A stretch of 32,779 nucleotides of DNA from a virus. Its lineage: Duplodnaviria > Caudoviricetes. The DNA lies in IMG/VR virus record IMGVR_UViG_3300036987_000161, positions 1 to 32,779 of that record. One strand, written 5' to 3'. Of this stretch, positions 12,988 to 31,683 are shown in pieces. Every line of letters begins with the position of its first letter. Positions within the stretch are counted from its first letter, which is position 1. Under the pieces are notes generated by a model. The model did not search any database. It was not told the DNA's origin and worked only from the letters and a program-made list of their open reading frames with translations. The translations under genes were made by a program, and so were the position numbers.

Positions 12988-13878
12988 ATGGACCAATTTT
13001 GGCAGGTGATATTGATCGTCTACACGTCGCTCGGCGGCGTGATGGCGGCAGTGTTCCTCATCCCCGGCTTACAGCAGTGGTTAGGTGCGCAGCTTTCGCG
13101 CTTGGTCGCGCATCACTTCGATCAGCGGATCGAGGAGGTTAAATCCTCGCTAAGGCAGACAGAGCAGCGGCTTGAAGCGGAGTTGCGGTCGGCCGAGCAG
13201 ACGACGCGGGTGCTCGGTGAGACAGCGCTTCGGATGCAATCGAACCGCCATGAGGCGCTGAATGCCCGGCGGTTGGTGGCTGTCGAAGCCCTCTGGAAGG
13301 CGAAGACTGACATCGACAAGATGATTATGGCGCCGAAGTTGCTGGCCGGCATCAACGTCGAGGTGTTCCTGAATGCCGCCGACAAAGGCGAGCACGGCAT
13401 TCAGGAAACGGCCGAAGCGATGCTGCAACTAATGAACATCGACATGCTCAAGTCGTTGCCGAACACGTCGCCGCAAGCTCAGCGGCCTTTCCTGGCGCCA
13501 GATGTCTGGGCACTATTCTCGGCATACTCGAGCGTAATCATTGAGCCAGTCCTGGTGATCACCGCCGTCGCCCACGGCGCCACGAAGTTCTTGAAGCGGG
13601 AAGACACACTGAAACCGATGTTACTGCTGATCCTCCCCGAGCATTCGGAGCTGATCAAGCTTTGCGGCAAAGCAGGCTATGACCCGCTGATCGCCCCCCT
13701 TGAGCAGAAACTCCTTACTGCCATCGGCAACATGCTGGAAGGGAGAGACGCTGACGCTGCGATGCTTCAACGGTCGGCGGAAGTGATGGCAGCGATAAAT
13801 AAACACAACGCCGCCACCGCAGCCGGTAGCGCCGAGGCGGCGGGTAAGGCGATAGCCTCTGCAGTGCCGACCGCTTAA
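12988..13878 (+). CDS. Membrane-anchored hypothetical protein (moron)
   Basis: 296 aa; GAGGAG RBS; N-terminal TM helix then coiled coil; antisense to the late operon. Confidence 0.75.
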   Translation: MDQFWQVILIVYTSLGGVMAAVFLIPGLQQWLGAQLSRLVAHHFDQRIEEVKSSLRQTEQRLEAELRSAEQTTRVLGETALRMQSNRHEALNARRLVAVEALWKAKTDIDKMIMAPKLLAGINVEVFLNAADKGEHGIQETAEAMLQLMNIDMLKSLPNTSPQAQRPFLAPDVWALFSAYSSVIIEPVLVITAVAHGATKFLKREDTLKPMLLLILPEHSELIKLCGKAGYDPLIAPLEQKLLTAIGNMLEGRDADAAMLQRSAEVMAAINKHNAATAAGSAEAAGKAIASAVPTA

Positions 13879-22214: not shown

Positions 22215-23564
22215 CTAGCCACCAGCTGCTGCGGATCGAGCCATCTGAACCTCGGCGAACGTCCGGCCGTCCGCCTCGAGTACGGCCGTCTGGCCGGAGA
22301 ACTGCTCCCAGCGCTTCACCGCGACATCGACGTACGTCGGGCTAAGCTCTATGGCGCGGCACAGTCGACCGGTCATTTCGCAAGCCATTATCGTCGTGCC
22401 CGATCCGGAGAAGGGCTCGAATACAGCGTCGCCGGGCTTGGAATTGTTGAGGATCGGGCGCCGCATGCATTCGACGGGCTTCTGCGTCGAATGACCGGTG
22501 TCGTTCTTGGAGTGCTCGATCTCCCATACCGTAGATTGCCGTCGGCCACCGCGCCAACCGGCGGATTGGCCGTCGCGAACGGCGTAGGCGAGGAGCTCGT
22601 GGTCGTCCTCGAACCGCCATCCGTCATCGCGGCCCTGCTTGACCGCGTAGAAGGCCGGCTCGTGCTGCCAATGGTAGTGGCCGCGCGAGAGCGCGGGACG
22701 ATGCTTCACCCAGATGATCTGGGCGCGCACCTGATATCCGCTAGCATGTAGGCTAGCGTCGACGGTCGCACCGTGCAGGGCTCCGTGCCAGACATAGATG
22801 ACGTTGCCCGGGCAGAGGCGCCACGCTTCGGACCAGTCGGCGCGGTCGTCGTTCAACACCTTGCCGGTGGCGTGAACGGCGCCTGATTTGCCCTTGGCAT
22901 CCGCGCGCCAAGAGGCGTCGTACTCGACGCCATACGGCGGGTCGGTGACTGTCAGTACCGGCTGCGCCCCAGCGCATACGCGGTCGACGTTTGCCGCGAC
23001 GGTGCTGTCGCCGCACAAAATGCGGTGCGGGCCGAGAATCCAGACATCGCCGAGGGTGGTCACCGGGTCCTGGGCTGCTTCGGGGGTCTCTTCCGCTGCG
23101 CGGAGTTCGTCGTCGATCGAGAGGAAGCGGTCGATCTCGATTTCGTCGAAGCCGGTCAGCTCGAGATCTACGTCGAGCGCCTTGAGGTCCCGCAGCTCGT
23201 CGGCCAGGAGGTCCTCGAGCCAGGTCGTTTCTTCGTGCAGCCGGTTGTCGGCTATCCGGTAGGCCCTTGCCTTTTCTGGGCTCAGGCGCGCGACGATCAC
23301 TGGAACCGTGTCGAGCTTCAGAAGGCTTGCGGCCATCCAACGAATGCGGCCGACGATGATGACGCCGGCGTCGTCGACGACGATGGGCTGCTGAAATCCG
23401 AACTCACGGATGGAGGCGGCGACCTTCTCCCGCGCCTTCTTCGAGGCGGTGCGCGGGTTCTTGTCGTAAGGCTTGATCCGCTCCAGCGGCCAGTATTCGA
23501 CCCGCATCTGTGCCTTGGCGGCGCCGTCAGCCGGAACGGGCGTCGTAAGTACCTTGGTTGTCAC
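22215..23564 (-). CDS. ParB-N-domain-fused DNA methyltransferase (beta class, N6-A/N4-C)
   Basis: N-terminal PY..NPR...SIREFGF..PIVVD...YRIADNRL; TDPPY motif IV before H.TQKP and FEPFSGSGTT motif I. Confidence 0.92.
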   Translation of the reverse strand: MTTKVLTTPVPADGAAKAQMRVEYWPLERIKPYDKNPRTASKKAREKVAASIREFGFQQPIVVDDAGVIIVGRIRWMAASLLKLDTVPVIVARLSPEKARAYRIADNRLHEETTWLEDLLADELRDLKALDVDLELTGFDEIEIDRFLSIDDELRAAEETPEAAQDPVTTLGDVWILGPHRILCGDSTVAANVDRVCAGAQPVLTVTDPPYGVEYDASWRADAKGKSGAVHATGKVLNDDRADWSEAWRLCPGNVIYVWHGALHGATVDASLHASGYQVRAQIIWVKHRPALSRGHYHWQHEPAFYAVKQGRDDGWRFEDDHELLAYAVRDGQSAGWRGGRRQSTVWEIEHSKNDTGHSTQKPVECMRRPILNNSKPGDAVFEPFSGSGTTIMACEMTGRLCRAIELSPTYVDVAVKRWEQFSGQTAVLEADGRTFAEVQMARSAAAGG

Positions 23565-25065: not shown

Positions 25066-25266
25066 TCAGCGCGGCCTGCGGTCCGTCTTGACGAGACGTA
25101 GATGCGCAGCGTGAACCTTGAGGGCCGTCGCGCGCTGCTGATCCTTCGCGATGCGCAGCCATGGGCGGCCCGGATAGACCACCAGGTACCGGTCGCCCAC
25201 GTCGGCCACCGCAGCTCCGACGGGCACATCCGCGAGCGCCTTTTCGGCGGACTTCGTGACGCTCAT
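25066..25266 (-). CDS. Small hypothetical protein coupled to the RHH gene
   Basis: ATGA overlap with the RHH gene stop; 66 aa. Confidence 0.4.
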   Translation of the reverse strand: MSVTKSAEKALADVPVGAAVADVGDRYLVVYPGRPWLRIAKDQQRATALKVHAAHLRLVKTDRRPR

Positions 25267-25460
25267 TTGCCTTTCCCTGTCCCCAGCGCCTTCGCAAGCA
25301 ATTCGCGGATCATGGCTGCCCGGTCGGGCTGATCCATCCTGTCGTTCCGCATCCGATCGATCGCATCGAGCATCGGCTGTGGTAGCCGCAACGCTATTTG
25401 CGGCATCGTCGCGTCACCCTTCGGCGGCCGTCCAACACGCTTTTTTGGTGTGTTGCTCAT
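25263..25460 (-). CDS. Ribbon-helix-helix (Arc/CopG-like) repressor with N-terminal GRP hook
   Basis: MSNTPKKRVGRPPKG...QIALRLPQPMLDAID...DRAAMIRELLAKAL. Confidence 0.8.
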   Translation of the reverse strand: MSNTPKKRVGRPPKGDATMPQIALRLPQPMLDAIDRMRNDRMDQPDRAAMIRELLAKALGTGKGK

Positions 25461-25463
25461 GCG

Positions 25464-25564
25464 CCTTGCATATCGCATCCCAAAAAAAATGCAACACAGG
25501 CCAAAAAATGACGTGAAGAGCGAATGTTACCCCTTGCATTACGCATCCCGAAAAGCGACATTAA
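25464..25564. promoter_or_regulatory. Divergent promoter region with two 18-bp direct repeats (putative RHH operators)
   Basis: CCTTGCATATCGCATCCC at 25464-25481 and CCTTGCATTACGCATCCC at 25532-25549; TTGCAT -35-like boxes in both directions. Confidence 0.65.
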
Positions 25565-25710
25565 TTCGCGTAGGGACTGAACATCCTTGCGTAAGTATCT
25601 GCAAAGTCGACGCGAACCACCGAAGCGGCCAGGGGCCGGACTAGCCGAGGTGGGGAGGGGCTCGAAAGGCTCCCGGTGATCGATAGACCCTGCGAAAGAA
25701 AGGAACTAAA

Positions 25711-26277: not shown

Positions 26278-26323
26278 GTGGCCCGCCGGGGCCCGCCCGG
26301 CTCAACCCTGCGAAAGATGAAAC

Positions 26324-26536: not shown

Positions 26537-26597
26537 GACGGCCAGAGGGCGCGCGAACGCTCCTCGGCTGGGATCAACAAACCCTGCGAGAGAAACA

Positions 26598-26873: not shown

Positions 26874-26957
26874 CTTGAAACGAAGCGGCCCCGGAAGGGC
26901 GCGAACCCTTCCGAGGCCTGAGTGATCATCCAACCCTGCGAGAGAAGGAATATTCAC

Positions 26958-28340
26958 GTGACGATCCATAACACACCTTTGCCGCTGCGAATAGCCACTG
27001 CGGCGGCGTTCACTACCGGCGCCCTGGCCATCGTTCTGCAGGACATTTTGGACCTGCGCAGCATCCCGACGATGCTGGCCAATTGGACGCTGGTGCACAC
27101 TCTAGCCGTGCTCGCCGTCGTCGGTGTCACATTGACCGCCGAACTCGGATGGGACGCTCGCAAGTCGCAGCGTTACACCGTGGCGCGGGGGTTCATGATG
27201 GTGACGGTCGTCGGGCTCGGCCTCATCGTTTACAACAGCGTTGGTCGGCAGGCCGAGAACGCCAACGCGAAGCACGTCAGCGCTTCGGCGCACAACAAGT
27301 CCGTCGACGACGCAGCTGCGCGCTTGTCAAAGGCAGAGGCCGCGATGTCTGCGGCTGCGTCGGGAACGGCTGCACAACTTGTCGCCGCTAATGCCCGTGT
27401 CGCCTCAGCGGTAAAGGCCAAGGCAGACGCCGTCGCCGGCGCCATTGCCAATGCCTCGGCAAAGAACTGCGCGACCAAGTGCGCCGACTTGTTGAAGAAA
27501 GCGCAGGACGACGCAGAGCACGAACTGACGTTGGCTCGCGAAGCCGTAGCCAGCGGCGTCGCTGTTGCTGTGCGGGAAGCAAGGCAGGAACTGGCGGGCG
27601 CTAGAAACGCCGTCAACGATCTGGGCCCAGCCGTCGAGATCGCTACGGTTTCTGCGAAGGCGAAGCAGTGGGGCGAGACGCTCACGCTCATCGGCATTTC
27701 GCCGGCGACGACCGAGCGGTTCGCAAGCCGTCTAGAGTACATCTTCTGGACCCTGTTCTTCGAAATCGGCTCCATGGTTTCCTGGTGCTTTGTGCGTCAA
27801 CGTCCGCAGGAAACCATCGCAGCTACGGCAACCGTCGACGTCAAGGCAGCGGCGGTTGCTTTGCTCCAGAAGGCGGTTGCTTGGCTGCTCGGCGCCGAAA
27901 CGGCCCAGAAGGCAACCGAGGCAACCTCGGCAACCGTCGACGCCGAGTTGGCTCGGTTGAACAACCTGCGCGTCGCGTTCTTCGCTCCGGACAACGATCC
28001 TGACCCGCAGCCGACGCCGCCGGGCAACCGTCGACGCAAGCAACCGAAGTCGGAAACCAAGGCAACCGTGGCCAATCGCCAGTCGGCAACCGTGATCCCC
28101 CTGCATGCGGGCAACCGTGCGCAGAAGGTTTCCGAAGCCGAAGCCCTCAAGTGGCTGCGCGACTACACCGCCTCCAACGGTTGCCTGGACGAGCAGGACG
28201 CCATGGCCGAGGACCTGGACGTCAACAAGGGCTCGGTTTCCAAGTGGCTGGACAAGTGGGAGACCGAGGAGCTGATCGAACGTCAGCAAGTCGGACGCCG
28301 CAAGATCGTCCGGATGCTTCCCGCCAAGGCCTCCGCCTGA
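26958..28340 (+). CDS. Polytopic membrane protein: 3 TM + coiled coil with CxxxC + TM + linker + C-terminal winged HTH
   Basis: GTG at 26958 after AAGGA; three N-terminal hydrophobic segments; NCATKC in Ala-rich coiled coil; TM YIFWTLFFEIGSMVSWCFV; C-terminal QDAMAEDLDVNKGSVSKWLDKWETEELIER...GRRK HTH. Confidence 0.8.
   Translation: MTIHNTPLPLRIATAAAFTTGALAIVLQDILDLRSIPTMLANWTLVHTLAVLAVVGVTLTAELGWDARKSQRYTVARGFMMVTVVGLGLIVYNSVGRQAENANAKHVSASAHNKSVDDAAARLSKAEAAMSAAASGTAAQLVAANARVASAVKAKADAVAGAIANASAKNCATKCADLLKKAQDDAEHELTLAREAVASGVAVAVREARQELAGARNAVNDLGPAVEIATVSAKAKQWGETLTLIGISPATTERFASRLEYIFWTLFFEIGSMVSWCFVRQRPQETIAATATVDVKAAAVALLQKAVAWLLGAETAQKATEATSATVDAELARLNNLRVAFFAPDNDPDPQPTPPGNRRRKQPKSETKATVANRQSATVIPLHAGNRAQKVSEAEALKWLRDYTASNGCLDEQDAMAEDLDVNKGSVSKWLDKWETEELIERQQVGRRKIVRMLPAKASA
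27776..28241. repeat. Intragenic array of about 17 RG(C/A)AACC heptamers, both orientations
   Basis: Forward at 27809, 27827, 27911, 27920, 27929, 28023, 28039, 28052, 28061, 28085, 28110; reverse at 27776, 27854, 27875, 28127, 28179, 28235. Confidence 0.88.
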
Positions 28341-28368
28341 ACCGCCGAGGATCTCGGCATTAACACCG

Positions 28369-28402
28369 ACCCCGGCGCCGCCCAGCGCCGGGGTTTTTCT
28401 TT
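28369..28402 (+). terminator. Intrinsic terminator ending the plus-strand operon
   Basis: ACCCCGGCGC-6nt-GCGCCGGGGT-TTTTCTTT. Confidence 0.8.
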
Positions 28403-28428
28403 GGGCGCTGGACGCCTACATTAGCGCC

Positions 28429-29043
28429 GTGCCGCGTAGCCCGTTCATACCGCCGTCAGCGCCCGTTCTCCGTTCCGAGCCGCCGATCGGCCCGGAATGG
28501 CTGCACGAGGTGAAGCACGACGGCTGGCGTGCCCAGATACACCGGCACGGCGAGAAATCTGCGATCTACGGCAAGAACGGCGGTGACCTGACCGCACGAT
28601 TTCCGACGATCATCGCAGCCGTGGCGCGGCTCCCCATCCAGAGCGTCATCATCGACGCCGAACTCGTCGCCTGCACCGCCGACGGCAGGCCGAACTTTTA
28701 CGCCATGATGAGGCGGTCGCCACATGGCTGCTGCGTCTACTGCTTTGATCTGCTCGAGCTGGACGGCCAATCTCTGATGCCGCTGCCACTGGACATGCGG
28801 CGGCGGATGCTGGGCCGACTTTTGCGCCGCGCCGACAATGACGCTCTGCGGTTGTCCGAGACGTTTGACGATCCACTAGCCCTGCTAGCCGCCTGCGAGC
28901 AGCACGGGCTTGAGGGCATCGTTTCTAAGCGGCGCCAGGACGCCTATCGCTCAGGGCGAAACCGCGGCTGGATCAAGGTTAAAACGGCGGCTTGGAAAGT
29001 GGCGAACCGCGAGCGCTATAAGTTGTTCCAGACGACCCGCTAG
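28429..29043 (+). CDS. ATP-dependent DNA ligase, LigD-type adenylation domain only
   Basis: Motif I HEVKHDGWR, III IDAELV, IIIa CFDLLELDG, IV EGIVSKR, V WIKVK; ends about 20 aa later with no OB domain. Confidence 0.9.
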   Translation: MPRSPFIPPSAPVLRSEPPIGPEWLHEVKHDGWRAQIHRHGEKSAIYGKNGGDLTARFPTIIAAVARLPIQSVIIDAELVACTADGRPNFYAMMRRSPHGCCVYCFDLLELDGQSLMPLPLDMRRRMLGRLLRRADNDALRLSETFDDPLALLAACEQHGLEGIVSKRRQDAYRSGRNRGWIKVKTAAWKVANRERYKLFQTTR

Positions 29044-29267
29044 ACCTTGGGTTCCTCACTCCACCCCAACAGCTCCGGCAGTTTCGCGATGTTTGCCGCC
29101 ACTCGTCTGGCCTCGTCCCGGGTCAGTCGCTGCATGGCGTTGCGGCGTTGCTCGACGTCTTCGAAGTAGACGAATGCTAGGCTCTGATCGTTGGCCGCTT
29201 TGATCTCGAAGCTCTCGTCGTGTTCAAGCACACGCCACGGAGCTGGAAGGCGTCGCGGTGCCTGCAT
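29040..29267 (-). CDS. Conserved small alphaproteobacterial hypothetical protein
   Basis: RR.P.PW.V...ANDQSLAFVYFED...LTRDEARRVAANIAKLPELL; convergent with the ligase. Confidence 0.7.
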   Translation of the reverse strand: MQAPRRLPAPWRVLEHDESFEIKAANDQSLAFVYFEDVEQRRNAMQRLTRDEARRVAANIAKLPELLGWSEEPKV

Positions 29268-29269
29268 GA

Positions 29270-29482
29270 CTACAACTCGACTTTGGCGTCCTTCGCCAGT
29301 TCGCGACCAGCGTCAGTGATCGTGCAATGCACGATGTCAGGGCTCGTCTGGTCTGCCTGCAGCGTCACCAGGCCGGACTTTTCCAACCGGCGCGCGAGCA
29401 CGAGCTCGCCGCCGGCGAGCGGCAGATAACCGTCGGACCGCGCGGCGAGCCGCTGCAGCAGTGAAGCGATGTCAGATGCCAA
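29270..29482 (-). CDS. Small winged-helix-like protein
   Basis: TTG start after GGAGG; ARRLEKSGLV...ITDAGRE wing signature. Confidence 0.55.
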   Translation of the reverse strand: MASDIASLLQRLAARSDGYLPLAGGELVLARRLEKSGLVTLQADQTSPDIVHCTITDAGRELAKDAKVEL

Positions 29483-29516
29483 TTGAACCTCCCATGTTGG
29501 TGGCGAGTCGCAAATC

Positions 29517-29588
29517 ACCTAGCATCCAATCGCGCTAGCGTCTGTCGATGCTAGCAGTCGCCAATGCTAGCAACGTAGCGTGATATCA
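29517..29588. promoter_or_regulatory. Putative centromere/operator: five 8-bp palindromic units at exact 16-bp period
   Basis: ACCTAGCA 29517, CGCTAGCG 29533, TGCTAGCA 29549, TGCTAGCA 29565, TGATATCA 29581; ends 1 nt before the parA ATG. Confidence 0.8.
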
Positions 29589-29589
29589 G

Positions 29590-30276
29590 ATGCGCGTCAT
29601 ATCTGTCGTCTCCAGCAAGGGAGGCGTCGGCAAGACGACGATCTCCAGTGCGCTGGCCGTCCGTGCGGCTCAAGAAAGCCGCCGCGTCGCGATCGTCGAC
29701 CTTGATCCCATGGGATCGCTCGCCGCCTGGTGGAAACGCCGCGGCGGCAGCCAGAACCCCTGCATCTTCACTGGCGCGGACACGGCATCGGACGCTGTCG
29801 AAGCCCTTGAGCTAGACGGGTGGGACTGGGTCTTCATCGACACGCCGCCCGCCTTTCTCAACACGATCTCCGACGCGATCGATAATGCCGACCTCGCGGT
29901 CATCCCGTTGCGGGCGAGCGCCCTGGACCTCATTGCCAGCGAAGACGCGGTGCTCATGGCGCGTGACATAGCCAAGCGTCAGCGCGCCGAGGGCATGCAG
30001 CCTGTCGGGCACCTGTGCGTCCTCAATGATGCGGAACCTCGTTGGAAGACGACTGACACCGCACGCGAGTACCTCCTCAAGGGCGGCGTCCCCGTCGCGG
30101 AAACAGTGATCGCGCACCGGCAAGCCTACCTCGCCGCGATGACGTCCGGAAAGACAGGCCCGGAAGTTGATCGCGTTCGGGACGGCGACGAATCCCCGTC
30201 GGCACGAGAGATCAATCGGCTGTTCGCCGAGGTGAAGGCGCTCACCAAAAAACCGAGGAAAAGGGGTCGGCTATGA
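29590..30276 (+). CDS. parA: ParA (ParF-like, type Ib) partition ATPase
   Basis: Deviant Walker A SKGGVGKTT, A' IVDLDPMGS, Walker B VFIDTPP; no N-terminal HTH. Confidence 0.92.
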   Translation: MRVISVVSSKGGVGKTTISSALAVRAAQESRRVAIVDLDPMGSLAAWWKRRGGSQNPCIFTGADTASDAVEALELDGWDWVFIDTPPAFLNTISDAIDNADLAVIPLRASALDLIASEDAVLMARDIAKRQRAEGMQPVGHLCVLNDAEPRWKTTDTAREYLLKGGVPVAETVIAHRQAYLAAMTSGKTGPEVDRVRDGDESPSAREINRLFAEVKALTKKPRKRGRL

Positions 30277-30572
30277 AGGAATCCGACGATGGCGACGACG
30301 GGAGCGCGTTCTCCAACCTGCTAGGCGCGTTCGGAAGCCATGCGGATCCGGAGAAGCGCGCGCGGTCTGAGCGGTTCGCCGCCATGAAGGCACGTGACAA
30401 ACGCCGACGGCCGGGACCTGCGAGAACCGAGCAGTATAATGCCCGGATCACAGAGGCGAAGCTTGCGCTGGCCCACCGCATTACGGTCCAAACCGGATTG
30501 GGCAATGGCGATATCGTCGAGCAAGGCATCGATCTGGTTGCTGCAAAGCACGGAGTGCCACTCGATGCCTGA
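30273..30572 (+). CDS. ParG-like centromere-binding protein (flexible N-tail + RHH)
   Basis: ATGA overlap with parA; Arg-rich tail, then TEQYNARI strand and two helices (GDIVEQGIDLV). Confidence 0.7.
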   Translation: MKESDDGDDGSAFSNLLGAFGSHADPEKRARSERFAAMKARDKRRRPGPARTEQYNARITEAKLALAHRITVQTGLGNGDIVEQGIDLVAAKHGVPLDA

Positions 30573-31683
30573 CAAACTTCTGCGATGCCTCGTCGGCGTC
30601 GCCGGCGTGGCTGTCGTCGCGGCGGCGACTTATGCGAACGTGATGCATGCCGGCGGCGTGGACGCCAAAGAGACGCCGCTCATCATCGCGTTGGCCGCAT
30701 TGCTGATCATCGGCATGGCGTTCGCCATGGTCTCATGGATCGAAAAGCGCAAGGCGCAGGCATTGGTGCTGGGGCTTTGCCTTCTCTGCGGGGAAGCGTA
30801 TTGGGCGTTGGTCAACCTCGATCGCGAGGTGACCGATCGCGACGTCCGCGCCTACCCGATTATCGAGGCCCGCAAAACCCGCAACGAAGCCGTGCGCAGA
30901 GTCACCGAGGCAGAGGCAAAGGTGGCTGCCGTACCTACTACGTCAAGCCGGCTCAACACGGCGCTCGGCGCAAAGGCGGCGGTCGACGCGACGGTACTAA
31001 CCAAGAGCGCCGACTTGAACTGTCGCGTGAATTGCAAAGAGCTGCTGCAGGGACAGGTGAGAGACGCCCAGCGCGAGGTGGACGCTGCCCGTTCCGAACT
31101 CGAGGCTGAGAAGCAATCCGCCGAGCAAGCGATGAAGGCCGCGAAAGCGGCGCTGGAGAAGCTTCCAGACCCGCCGTCGGCCACCGCGCTTCCGGACCGT
31201 CTCGGCATCGCGCCGTGGCTCTGGGACCTCATTCTGGCGGGACTGCGCACCGCCGGGATCGTCGGCGGATCTCTTGCGCTGGGTTTCGCCATCCATCCGC
31301 GGCGCCAGAAAACCGAAACGTCTAAGCTGGCGGCACAAGAGGTCGCCGCGGCGCGGAACGAGCGAGCCCAGCGGCTGGAGGTGAGGCCGGTGCCGGCGAT
31401 AACGCACCAGATGGACGCGCGCGAGCGGCGCGAGCACGTCTCGCTTTTCCTCCACGAGACGATCCGGCCGGATGTGAACGGTAGCTTGTCGCTCGAAGCC
31501 CTGGCCGCGCGCTATTCGACCTGGTGCAAGTCAGGTGCGCTGCCATCGGAAACGCTCGGTGAGGAGCTGCGGGCGATATTCCATGCGTTGGACCTCCGGC
31601 TCGAGCCGCAGGGCCGTGACGTTGTGGTTCATGGCGCCAGCATCGCGCAGGCAATTGCCGGACCGAAGTCGTCAGCAGCCTGA
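30565..31683 (+). CDS. Polytopic membrane protein: 3 TM + coiled coil with CxxxC + TM + C-terminal D5/P4-alpha/RFX-like winged helix
   Basis: ATG at 30565 overlaps the parG-like stop; NCRVNC in coiled coil; C-terminal VSLFLHETI...LSLEALAARYSTWC...LGEELR...VVVHG. Confidence 0.75.
   Translation: MPDKLLRCLVGVAGVAVVAAATYANVMHAGGVDAKETPLIIALAALLIIGMAFAMVSWIEKRKAQALVLGLCLLCGEAYWALVNLDREVTDRDVRAYPIIEARKTRNEAVRRVTEAEAKVAAVPTTSSRLNTALGAKAAVDATVLTKSADLNCRVNCKELLQGQVRDAQREVDAARSELEAEKQSAEQAMKAAKAALEKLPDPPSATALPDRLGIAPWLWDLILAGLRTAGIVGGSLALGFAIHPRRQKTETSKLAAQEVAAARNERAQRLEVRPVPAITHQMDARERREHVSLFLHETIRPDVNGSLSLEALAARYSTWCKSGALPSETLGEELRAIFHALDLRLEPQGRDVVVHGASIAQAIAGPKSSAA

Follow-up and report, generated by a model that had tools for sequence, protein, structure and literature searches.

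Partition systems of type Ib, typified by ParF/ParG of TP228, are two-protein systems in which a short ParA ATPase without a helix-turn-helix (HTH) is followed by a ribbon-helix-helix (RHH) protein with an N-terminal tail, with a repeat array upstream of parA. Attachment of DNA to the membrane is known from chromosome segregation, where RocS of Streptococcus pneumoniae and RacA of Bacillus subtilis are DNA-binding proteins that anchor the origin to the membrane. RicO of Staphylococcus aureus is likewise described as bridging origin DNA and membrane (bioRxiv 10.64898/2026.03.06.710092). Published work calls it unknown how budding bacteria pass DNA through their hypha, both for Hyphomonas (PMC6650430), which, as a caveat, belongs to another order, and for the Hyphomicrobiaceae (PMC10259793). 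Here we analysed a stretch of 32,779 nt (the window), which is the entire record of a tailed phage (IMG/VR IMGVR_UViG_3300036987_000161, our G000). Its region from 26958 to 31683 encodes two homologous proteins with four predicted transmembrane (TM) helices, TM1 and TM2: the gene of TM1 stands alone and carries a DNA repeat array, and that of TM2 is the third member of an operon with parA and an RHH gene. We consider it somewhat more probable than any other outcome taken together that both are DNA-to-membrane tethers which secure the inheritance of the element. The features concerned are the following:

26958..28340, + strand: TM1, stand-alone protein with four TM helices, Cys-hairpin coiled coil and MarR/GntR-like winged helix, 460 aa
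27827..28185, strand not assigned: intragenic GGCAACCG array in the TM1 linker, 8 exact copies (7 on +, 1 on −), candidate binding site of TM1 itself
29534..29571, strand not assigned: three GCTAGC palindromes at exact 16-bp spacing upstream of parA, candidate RHH centromere/operator (taken alone, p 0.31)
29590..30276, + strand: short ParF-type ParA ATPase without N-terminal HTH extension, 228 aa (NF041546, E 5e-41)
30273..30572, + strand: ParG-like RHH protein with a long N-terminal tail, 99 aa, assigned by profile matches
30565..31683, + strand: TM2, par-coupled protein with four TM helices, Cys-hairpin coiled coil and RFX/D5-like winged helix, 372 aa

Both proteins share one layout: three predicted TM helices are followed by a coiled-coil hairpin capped by Cys, then by a fourth TM helix, a linker and a winged helix. 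Hydropathy segments are found at 8, 45, 73 and 261 in TM1 (the first and fourth being modest, 1.56 and 1.45) and at 5, 39, 67 and 222 in TM2; a fifth, weak hydrophobic segment of TM1 (295–313) lies inside an insertion that TM1 homologues are without. The AlphaFold models reproduce this layout (pLDDT 87 for TM2 and 79 for TM1) and place the coiled coil between TM3 and TM4 in both. Whole-model fold matches to coiled coils and ABC transporters were discounted as generic helical similarity. The CxxxC centres of TM1 and TM2 can be aligned by BLAST (E 2e-5) and by profile–profile comparison (probability 97.8, E 7e-13); the homology covers TM helices 1 to 3 together with the Cys hairpin, and the Cys pair of the hairpin is retained in 136 of 137 family members. 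The C-terminal domains are different. That of TM2 can be assigned to the RFX/D5-primase winged helices on both fold (8zjr_M (RFX5), Z 9.2, rmsd 2.7 over 77 of 82 residues; 1dp7, Z 7.9; Foldseek probability 1.00 against RFX, yet E 0.055) and profile matches (Pox_D5 in 6 and RFX in 4 of 25 members), a domain that occurs otherwise as the C-terminus of P4-type primases. The TM1 domain shows weak sequence matches to MarR/GntR/ArsR winged helices, with which the secondary structure of the model is in line. Mean Lys + Arg counts in the TM2 clade (57 proteins) are 0.07 for loop 1, 1.91 for loop 2 and 1.93 after TM4, and are less clear in the other clades (0.83–1.4 for loop 1 versus 2.2–2.3 for loop 2). 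This suggests an N-in topology with a periplasmic hairpin and a cytoplasmic winged helix, clearly for the TM2 clade and more weakly elsewhere. An initial annotation, made from the window alone, had described this shared architecture with its alignable centre, the dissimilar C-terminal domains and the N-in topology, and all of these agree with our results. Neither NCBIfam nor PHROGs holds a name for TM1 or TM2, the ESM Atlas returned unnamed clusters only, and literature searches, which mostly lacked coverage of subscription papers, found no description of the family.

The parA gene, the RHH gene and TM2 overlap at their ends. ParA, with its Walker A motif at residue 10, scores 140 bits with NF041546, which is below the curated cut-off of 180 bits. 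Matches of the RHH protein are weak but concordant: its family profile matches CopG-family 7ak7, ParG 1p94 (E 0.026) and Arc (range E 0.002–0.1), and the protein matches an Arc-like PHROG (E 0.003). The association of the three genes is conserved. DNA was available for 61 non-redundant genes of the TM2 clade. In 45 of them parA and an RHH gene lie immediately upstream, in 6 just the RHH gene does (4 of these have <410 bp of upstream DNA) and in 1 just parA; 8 stand alone and 1 has insufficient DNA. Seeds for the profiles came from 9 loci (ParA) and 13 loci (RHH), and 8 of the 45 trio loci are seeds and 37 are not; the trio loci were collected via the TM gene, and the counts cover ParA genes beside TM genes. 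The same trio is present in 4 far more divergent members, which lie near the clade of chromosomal host genes described below. Short repeat arrays occur in the 150 bp before parA at 23 of 40 loci, compared with 1 of 45 regions upstream of stand-alone TM genes and 0 of 33 in a second set of control upstreams. TM2-type trios are carried by plasmid-like, prophage and integrative elements. We scanned 148 of the 350 open reading frames (ORFs) called in the surroundings of 15 par-linked loci. Markers of the integrase, Rep, resolvase or capsid kind were seen at 10 loci, and one trio lies on a circular record of 20.8 kb (direct terminal repeats) together with RepA_C, DnaB, resolvase and RelB. Members of the TM2 clade outside the operon have mostly exchanged their DNA-binding-type domain: of the 8 stand-alone genes, 5 carry other HTHs, 2 keep the RFX type and 1 is truncated.

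Several observations were made around these loci. RFX-keeping TM2-type genes that are parted from parA–RHH and have gained linker repeats were seen in L021 (21–977) and L023 (2558–3562), where they stand in front of a phage scaffold-like gene (labelled as scaffold by eye). An ATP-dependent ligase domain encoded on its own is seen repeatedly in the vicinity of the par trio (window 28429–29043; L172 11949–12554; also L097, L176 and L179). The elements that carry the trio in L099 (3239–17088) and L097–L098 are small and integrated, and they have a primase/helicase as well as capsid or tape-measure genes; no tail block was seen among the ORFs scanned, and these elements are phage-satellite-like.

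For TM1-clade genes, parA and RHH genes directly upstream were found in 0 of 37 cases (with ~1.5 kb of DNA at most loci). All 8 copies of GGCAACCG in the window fall within the array in the TM1 gene (2.1 expected; 0 of 100 shuffles as high), spread over several frames and both strands. These frames and strands, together with the excess over all synonymous-codon shuffles, rule out a repeat at the protein level; an iteron origin is not favoured, as 1-kb bins there have 63–65% GC in a coarse test. The initial annotation had noted the array in this one gene but missed that such arrays are a family-wide trait of stand-alone TM genes. Scoring hexamer clusters after TM4 against 100 synonymous-codon shuffles (p ≤0.02; rows with <200 nt after TM4 dropped), we found intragenic arrays in 28 of 44 stand-alone genes, 2 of 53 par-linked genes and 1 of 33 host genes. 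The initial set that fixed the cut-off gave 8/19, 2/51 and 1/18, respectively, and a held-out set of stand-alone genes, evaluated at the cut-off fixed beforehand, gave 16/27. Typical arrays comprise 6–12 sites in both orientations, 600–1200 nt into the gene; that of TM1 in the window has the top score of all tested. For 18 genes of one winged-helix subtype, we compared the dominant pentamer with the recognition helix. GCAAC is dominant in 9 of 10 KG-type genes (the tenth has no array) and in 0 of 8 others, CGGAC in 4 of 4 genes with D/E at helix position 6, and GAAAC or GGAAC in 3 of 3 genes with KS..S(K/R)W helices, in one of them narrowly. The TM1 gene of the window belongs to the GCAAC type, as do L154 and L162, while L089 and L169 are of the CGGAC type. 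Sister membrane modules may differ in both helix and repeat (L168/L170, L154/L156).

The membrane-module tree (FastTree, 137 rows, unrooted; leaving out L096, which is without TM4, the frameshifted L064 and three primases) consists of three groups: the TM1 clade, the TM2 clade, and the host genes with a grade of mobile members. TM1 and TM2, though homologous, belong by this tree to separate deep clades and are not recent duplicates, which corrects their initial description as paralogous. Both types occur together in only 1 of 31 trio loci of at least 12 kb, which is the window itself; one further contig, G321:C13, holds a TM1-type and a TM2-type gene 22 kb apart. The deep split and this rare co-occurrence rule out a conserved TM1–TM2 heteropair, as had been imagined for an anchor or channel. 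The presence of both in the window is thus a coincidence of two modules.

On its minus strand the window has the head and tail genes of a tailed phage, up to the terminase genes; a plus-strand accessory region from 25.7 kb houses both TM genes and the par operon. A terminal repeat was sought in the window and not found. Two contigs of the public run X1, which may be where the window comes from, have equal depth (26.6 and 27) and reach ~14.2 kb to the left and ~6.0 kb to the right of the window, giving a phage length of ~53 kb if they are colinear with it. Since the contigs continue beyond both ends, the replication and lysogeny genes would fall outside the window. The TM1 family has two matches in the genome collection, one of which is a Hyphomicrobium metagenome-assembled genome (MAG), and both TM families are frequent in the family to which this MAG belongs. 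For these two reasons the phage probably infects budding Hyphomicrobiaceae, in keeping with the budding-cell hosts initially envisaged.

These probable hosts keep a core chromosomal homologue, which had been missed. The TM2 profile matches 366 of 401 family genomes, weakly; a sample of 20 loci proved to be mostly the host gene plus mobile copies, so that these matches could not be taken as one gene and the count was redone with a host profile (13 seed sequences from Hyphomicrobiaceae). The host protein (410–460 aa) has the same layout and, in most of the 20 loci read, an RFX-type domain, and it matches the TM2 family over its full length (probability 98.5, 332 columns). Of 61 Hyphomicrobiaceae genomes, 54 carry it at E 1e-100, essentially in single copy; in two further families of the same order it occurs in 41/41 and 14/14 genomes. 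The order-wide search gave matches in 55 of 301 genomes at E 1e-8, a few of them domain-only, and no full-length homologue was found among 300 further Alphaproteobacteria; beyond G001, there were five primase-domain matches only. Weak class-level matches were rejected as host homologues, as they were P4/D5 primases. Identity within the family is 60–76%, and 12 of 13 long host loci have a common neighbourhood (peptidoglycan-binding gene, cutA, NAD kinase), with the host gene divergent from the peptidoglycan-binding gene in the loci read. The protein has no annotation in Pfam/NCBIfam beyond sub-threshold primase/RFX matches, and its source name is 'hypothetical'. A search of the plasmid collection gave no match for TM2 or the host protein, and one of the phage collection gave none for the host protein. 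The host clade is nested among mobile par-linked members (support 88–96 in the unrooted tree), which suggests that the host gene was domesticated from a mobile member.

Two mobile genes come closest to that of the host: the one in L066 (2966–8025) is flanked by a VirD4-like coupling protein and a relaxase, the one in L071 (2914–8194) by repA and a divergent parA. L004 (8484–9572, −), L002 (7842–8897, −) and L003 (7865–8992, −) encode further multi-TM / Cys-hairpin / TM proteins, without an evident DNA-binding tail, whose genes are on the late strand and upstream of those for the terminase; the L004 protein scores 75 bits with the host profile.

Starting from the observed architecture, homology, operon context, repeat arrays, distribution and host homologue, we infer that both proteins would tether element DNA to the inner membrane of the budding host, so that it is positioned and inherited, by separate routes. 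In the first, the RHH protein would bind the palindromes upstream of parA and engage ParA as in type Ib; TM2 would add a membrane anchor, with its RFX-type domain holding DNA or the segrosome. In the second, TM1 would act as a one-gene tether whose winged helix binds the array in its own coding sequence; gene, anchor and site would then travel as one unit. The hairpin, presumably disulfide-capped in the periplasm, might oligomerise or dock on the wall or on the chromosomal homologue of the host, and docking would hold the anchor in place at a pole, in a hypha or in a bud. On this view the routes are alternatives which this phage happens to combine. We favour tethering because a DNA-facing membrane protein is found in a partition operon, or with a candidate site, on elements that need stable passage, and because the hosts grow through hyphae. 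There are precedents in SpdA2, which binds a site within its own gene and has an effect on stability (PMC4170104), and in RicO with its link of origin DNA to the membrane (bioRxiv 10.64898/2026.03.06.710092).

A number of points weigh against this proposal. Since the membrane is fluid, a tether alone would impart no direction unless it has a fixed partner, and the partner is so far putative. No replication or integration gene was seen within the 32.8-kb window, which leaves an episomal state of the phage hypothetical. Among the ORFs scanned, 5 of 15 par-linked loci have no mobile-element marker; the TM genes of several trios are split or truncated, which means that the TM gene can decay. For the RFX-type domains of TM2 and the host protein, no binding site was found. 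As for the arrays, 16 of 44 stand-alone genes have none, and the contrast is clustered by phylogeny, leaving 5 independent pairs (2.2 in the same direction, 0.0 in the opposite one, p 0.5). The agreement of helix and motif has 1–3 independent pairs and is not significant; moreover, the linker adjoins the helix, and recombination would move both together whatever their function.

Several other explanations were considered. It seems unlikely that the proteins oligomerise into a DNA-conducting transfer pore or gate, to which ParA and RHH would deliver the element in the manner of VirC1/VirC2, for SpdB2-like spreading through the hypha or across a plug. Four TM helices with a DNA-binding-type domain also characterise the pore-forming SpdB2 (PMC4447253), plugs are reported to close Rhodomicrobium hyphae (PMC10259793), the L066 homologue has a coupling protein on one side and a relaxase on the other, and ParA matches VirC1 weakly. 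However, no translocase is conserved beside the trio (no FtsK/TraB gene among the 148 neighbouring ORFs scanned), the TM helices are mostly apolar, and SpdB2, as described, has an N-terminal coiled coil and binds DNA non-specifically (PMC4447253), with no sequence link between its DUF2637 family and ours. Rather improbable, too, is a membrane-bound one-component regulator whose periplasmic Cys hairpin senses the envelope or redox state, whose winged helix represses and whose array is an autoregulatory roadblock. The MarR/GntR/ArsR-like matches of TM1, the nearly invariant Cys pair and the divergent peptidoglycan-binding gene in the conserved host neighbourhood would suit such a sensor. It leaves the conserved third place in the par operon unexplained, and the arrays lie deep in the gene, in both orientations and far from any promoter, while the upstreams of stand-alone genes are practically without arrays (1/45); the RFX/D5 domain, moreover, is otherwise found in primases.

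Exclusion or conflict factors, which would intercept related DNA as it enters at the membrane or would be toxic effectors in the membrane with ParA as their switch, appear improbable. TM1-type genes are indeed opposite-strand accessory genes beside phage terminase genes, defence genes flank some loci, and ParA is described as often recruited to immunity (bioRxiv 10.64898/2026.10.19.760177). Yet the layout of candidate centromere, ParA and RHH is complete, and the single-copy host homologue is well conserved, unlike conflict effectors. The main text of the same report mentions no RHH, RFX or alphaproteobacterial system, and in its PCTM system ParA is fused to a TM domain, with an upstream effector (bioRxiv 10.64898/2026.10.19.760177), whereas ParA and the TM protein are encoded by separate genes here. 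Least probable is that the mobile copies are mimics which poison or displace the host homologue during lytic growth and so block segregation or budding. The membrane module common to the host protein and the mobile copies would fit, as would the L004 variant without a DNA-binding domain on the late strand beside the terminase genes, but a mimic would need neither sites of its own nor a par operon, and the carriers are mostly integrated or plasmid-like elements.

If TM1 and TM2 are indeed tethers, TM2 would represent a three-protein, membrane-coupled form of type Ib partition, and TM1 a one-gene tether that has its site built in and comes in natural variants of different specificity, which would lend themselves to use as orthogonal anchors of DNA to the membrane. 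For the passage of DNA across the hypha of budding bacteria, the clade-restricted, single-copy winged-helix membrane protein of the hosts is a concrete candidate; its mobile relatives sit inside partition operons. Much more tentatively, hypha-budding Hyphomicrobiales may use a new class of polytopic DNA–membrane anchor: a chromosomal member, domesticated from a mobile par cassette, would hold the chromosome or move it into hypha and bud, and mobile versions would dock on the machinery of the host via the hairpin, phages, satellites and plasmids carrying either versions plugged into ParA–RHH or one-gene tethers with a centromere within the gene itself and a helix-to-repeat code.

Further elements of the window lie around TM1:

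26933..26944, + strand: start-associated ACCCTGCGARAG motif before TM1, common to three small upstream genes
28368..28395, + strand: intrinsic-terminator-like hairpin closing the TM1 unit and separating it from the par operon

The ACCCTGCGARAG motif is found at 25687–25698, 26305–26316, 26581–26592 and 26933–26944, just before four consecutive plus-strand gene starts (4 found versus 0.62 expected), with GC-rich hairpin-like stretches, seen by eye, ahead of the sites; it looks like a start-associated element of a gene cassette series that includes TM1. A small RHH repressor (25263–25478, −) is divergent from this series, which ends in TM1, and a similar small gene was seen by eye near TM1-type genes in L008. 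Elsewhere in the window, a ParB-N domain is fused to an adenine/cytosine methyltransferase (22215–23564, −) upstream of the terminase genes, an arrangement common in phages, and an opposite-strand ORF of 296 aa within the head gene block (12988–13878, +) has an N-terminal hydrophobic helix and no named family.

Compared with described systems, the par operon resembles type Ib in its short, HTH-less Walker-type ParA, the downstream RHH protein (by weak, concordant matches) and the repeats upstream of parA (23/40). It differs in having a third gene, which overlaps the second and encodes a polytopic membrane protein ending in a winged helix of the RFX type, and is thus no longer a two-protein system; our literature searches turned up no third membrane gene in type Ib. 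Phage phi29 p16.7 has a single TM. It too is described as an integral membrane protein of a phage by which viral DNA is brought to the membrane, although it does so in lytic replication via terminal protein and displaced strands and without a par link (PMC4974454). SpdB2 of Streptomyces shares with our proteins four predicted TM helices, a coiled coil, DNA binding (presumed here) and an occurrence on plasmids or phages of hyphal bacteria, but its coiled coil is N-terminal (aa 1–99), ahead of the TM block and not between TM3 and TM4, and its partner is the TraB translocase (PMC4447253). The DUF2637 profile has no match at E 0.1 in 25 + 11 members, nor at E 0.01 in 13 further ones (family-profile comparison), so that membership of SpdB2/DUF2637, named at the outset as the closest architectural analogues, is not supported. 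RicO combines a sequence-specific DNA-binding domain with a membrane anchor for segregation, in the reverse order: its DNA-binding domain is N-terminal and followed by a C-terminal amphipathic helix (bioRxiv 10.64898/2026.03.06.710092). TM1 and TM2 lack the N-terminal DNA-binding domain with amphipathic helix or DivIVA docking that marks RicO, RocS and RacA; they have a C-terminal winged helix, four TM helices and a predicted periplasmic hairpin, are found on mobile elements, and no homology to these anchors was found. TM1 recalls SpdA2/sps of Streptomyces, in which the site bound by SpdA2 lies inside its own coding region and is linked to segregational stability in a hyphal organism; SpdA proteins are described as having 117–163 aa and one conserved palindrome (PMC4170104), whereas here a membrane protein of 300–460 aa is accompanied by a repeat that varies with the recognition helix. 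Taken together, and by analogy, the TM2 operon might work like type Ib partition combined with RicO/RocS-type anchoring, and TM1 like SpdA2/sps.

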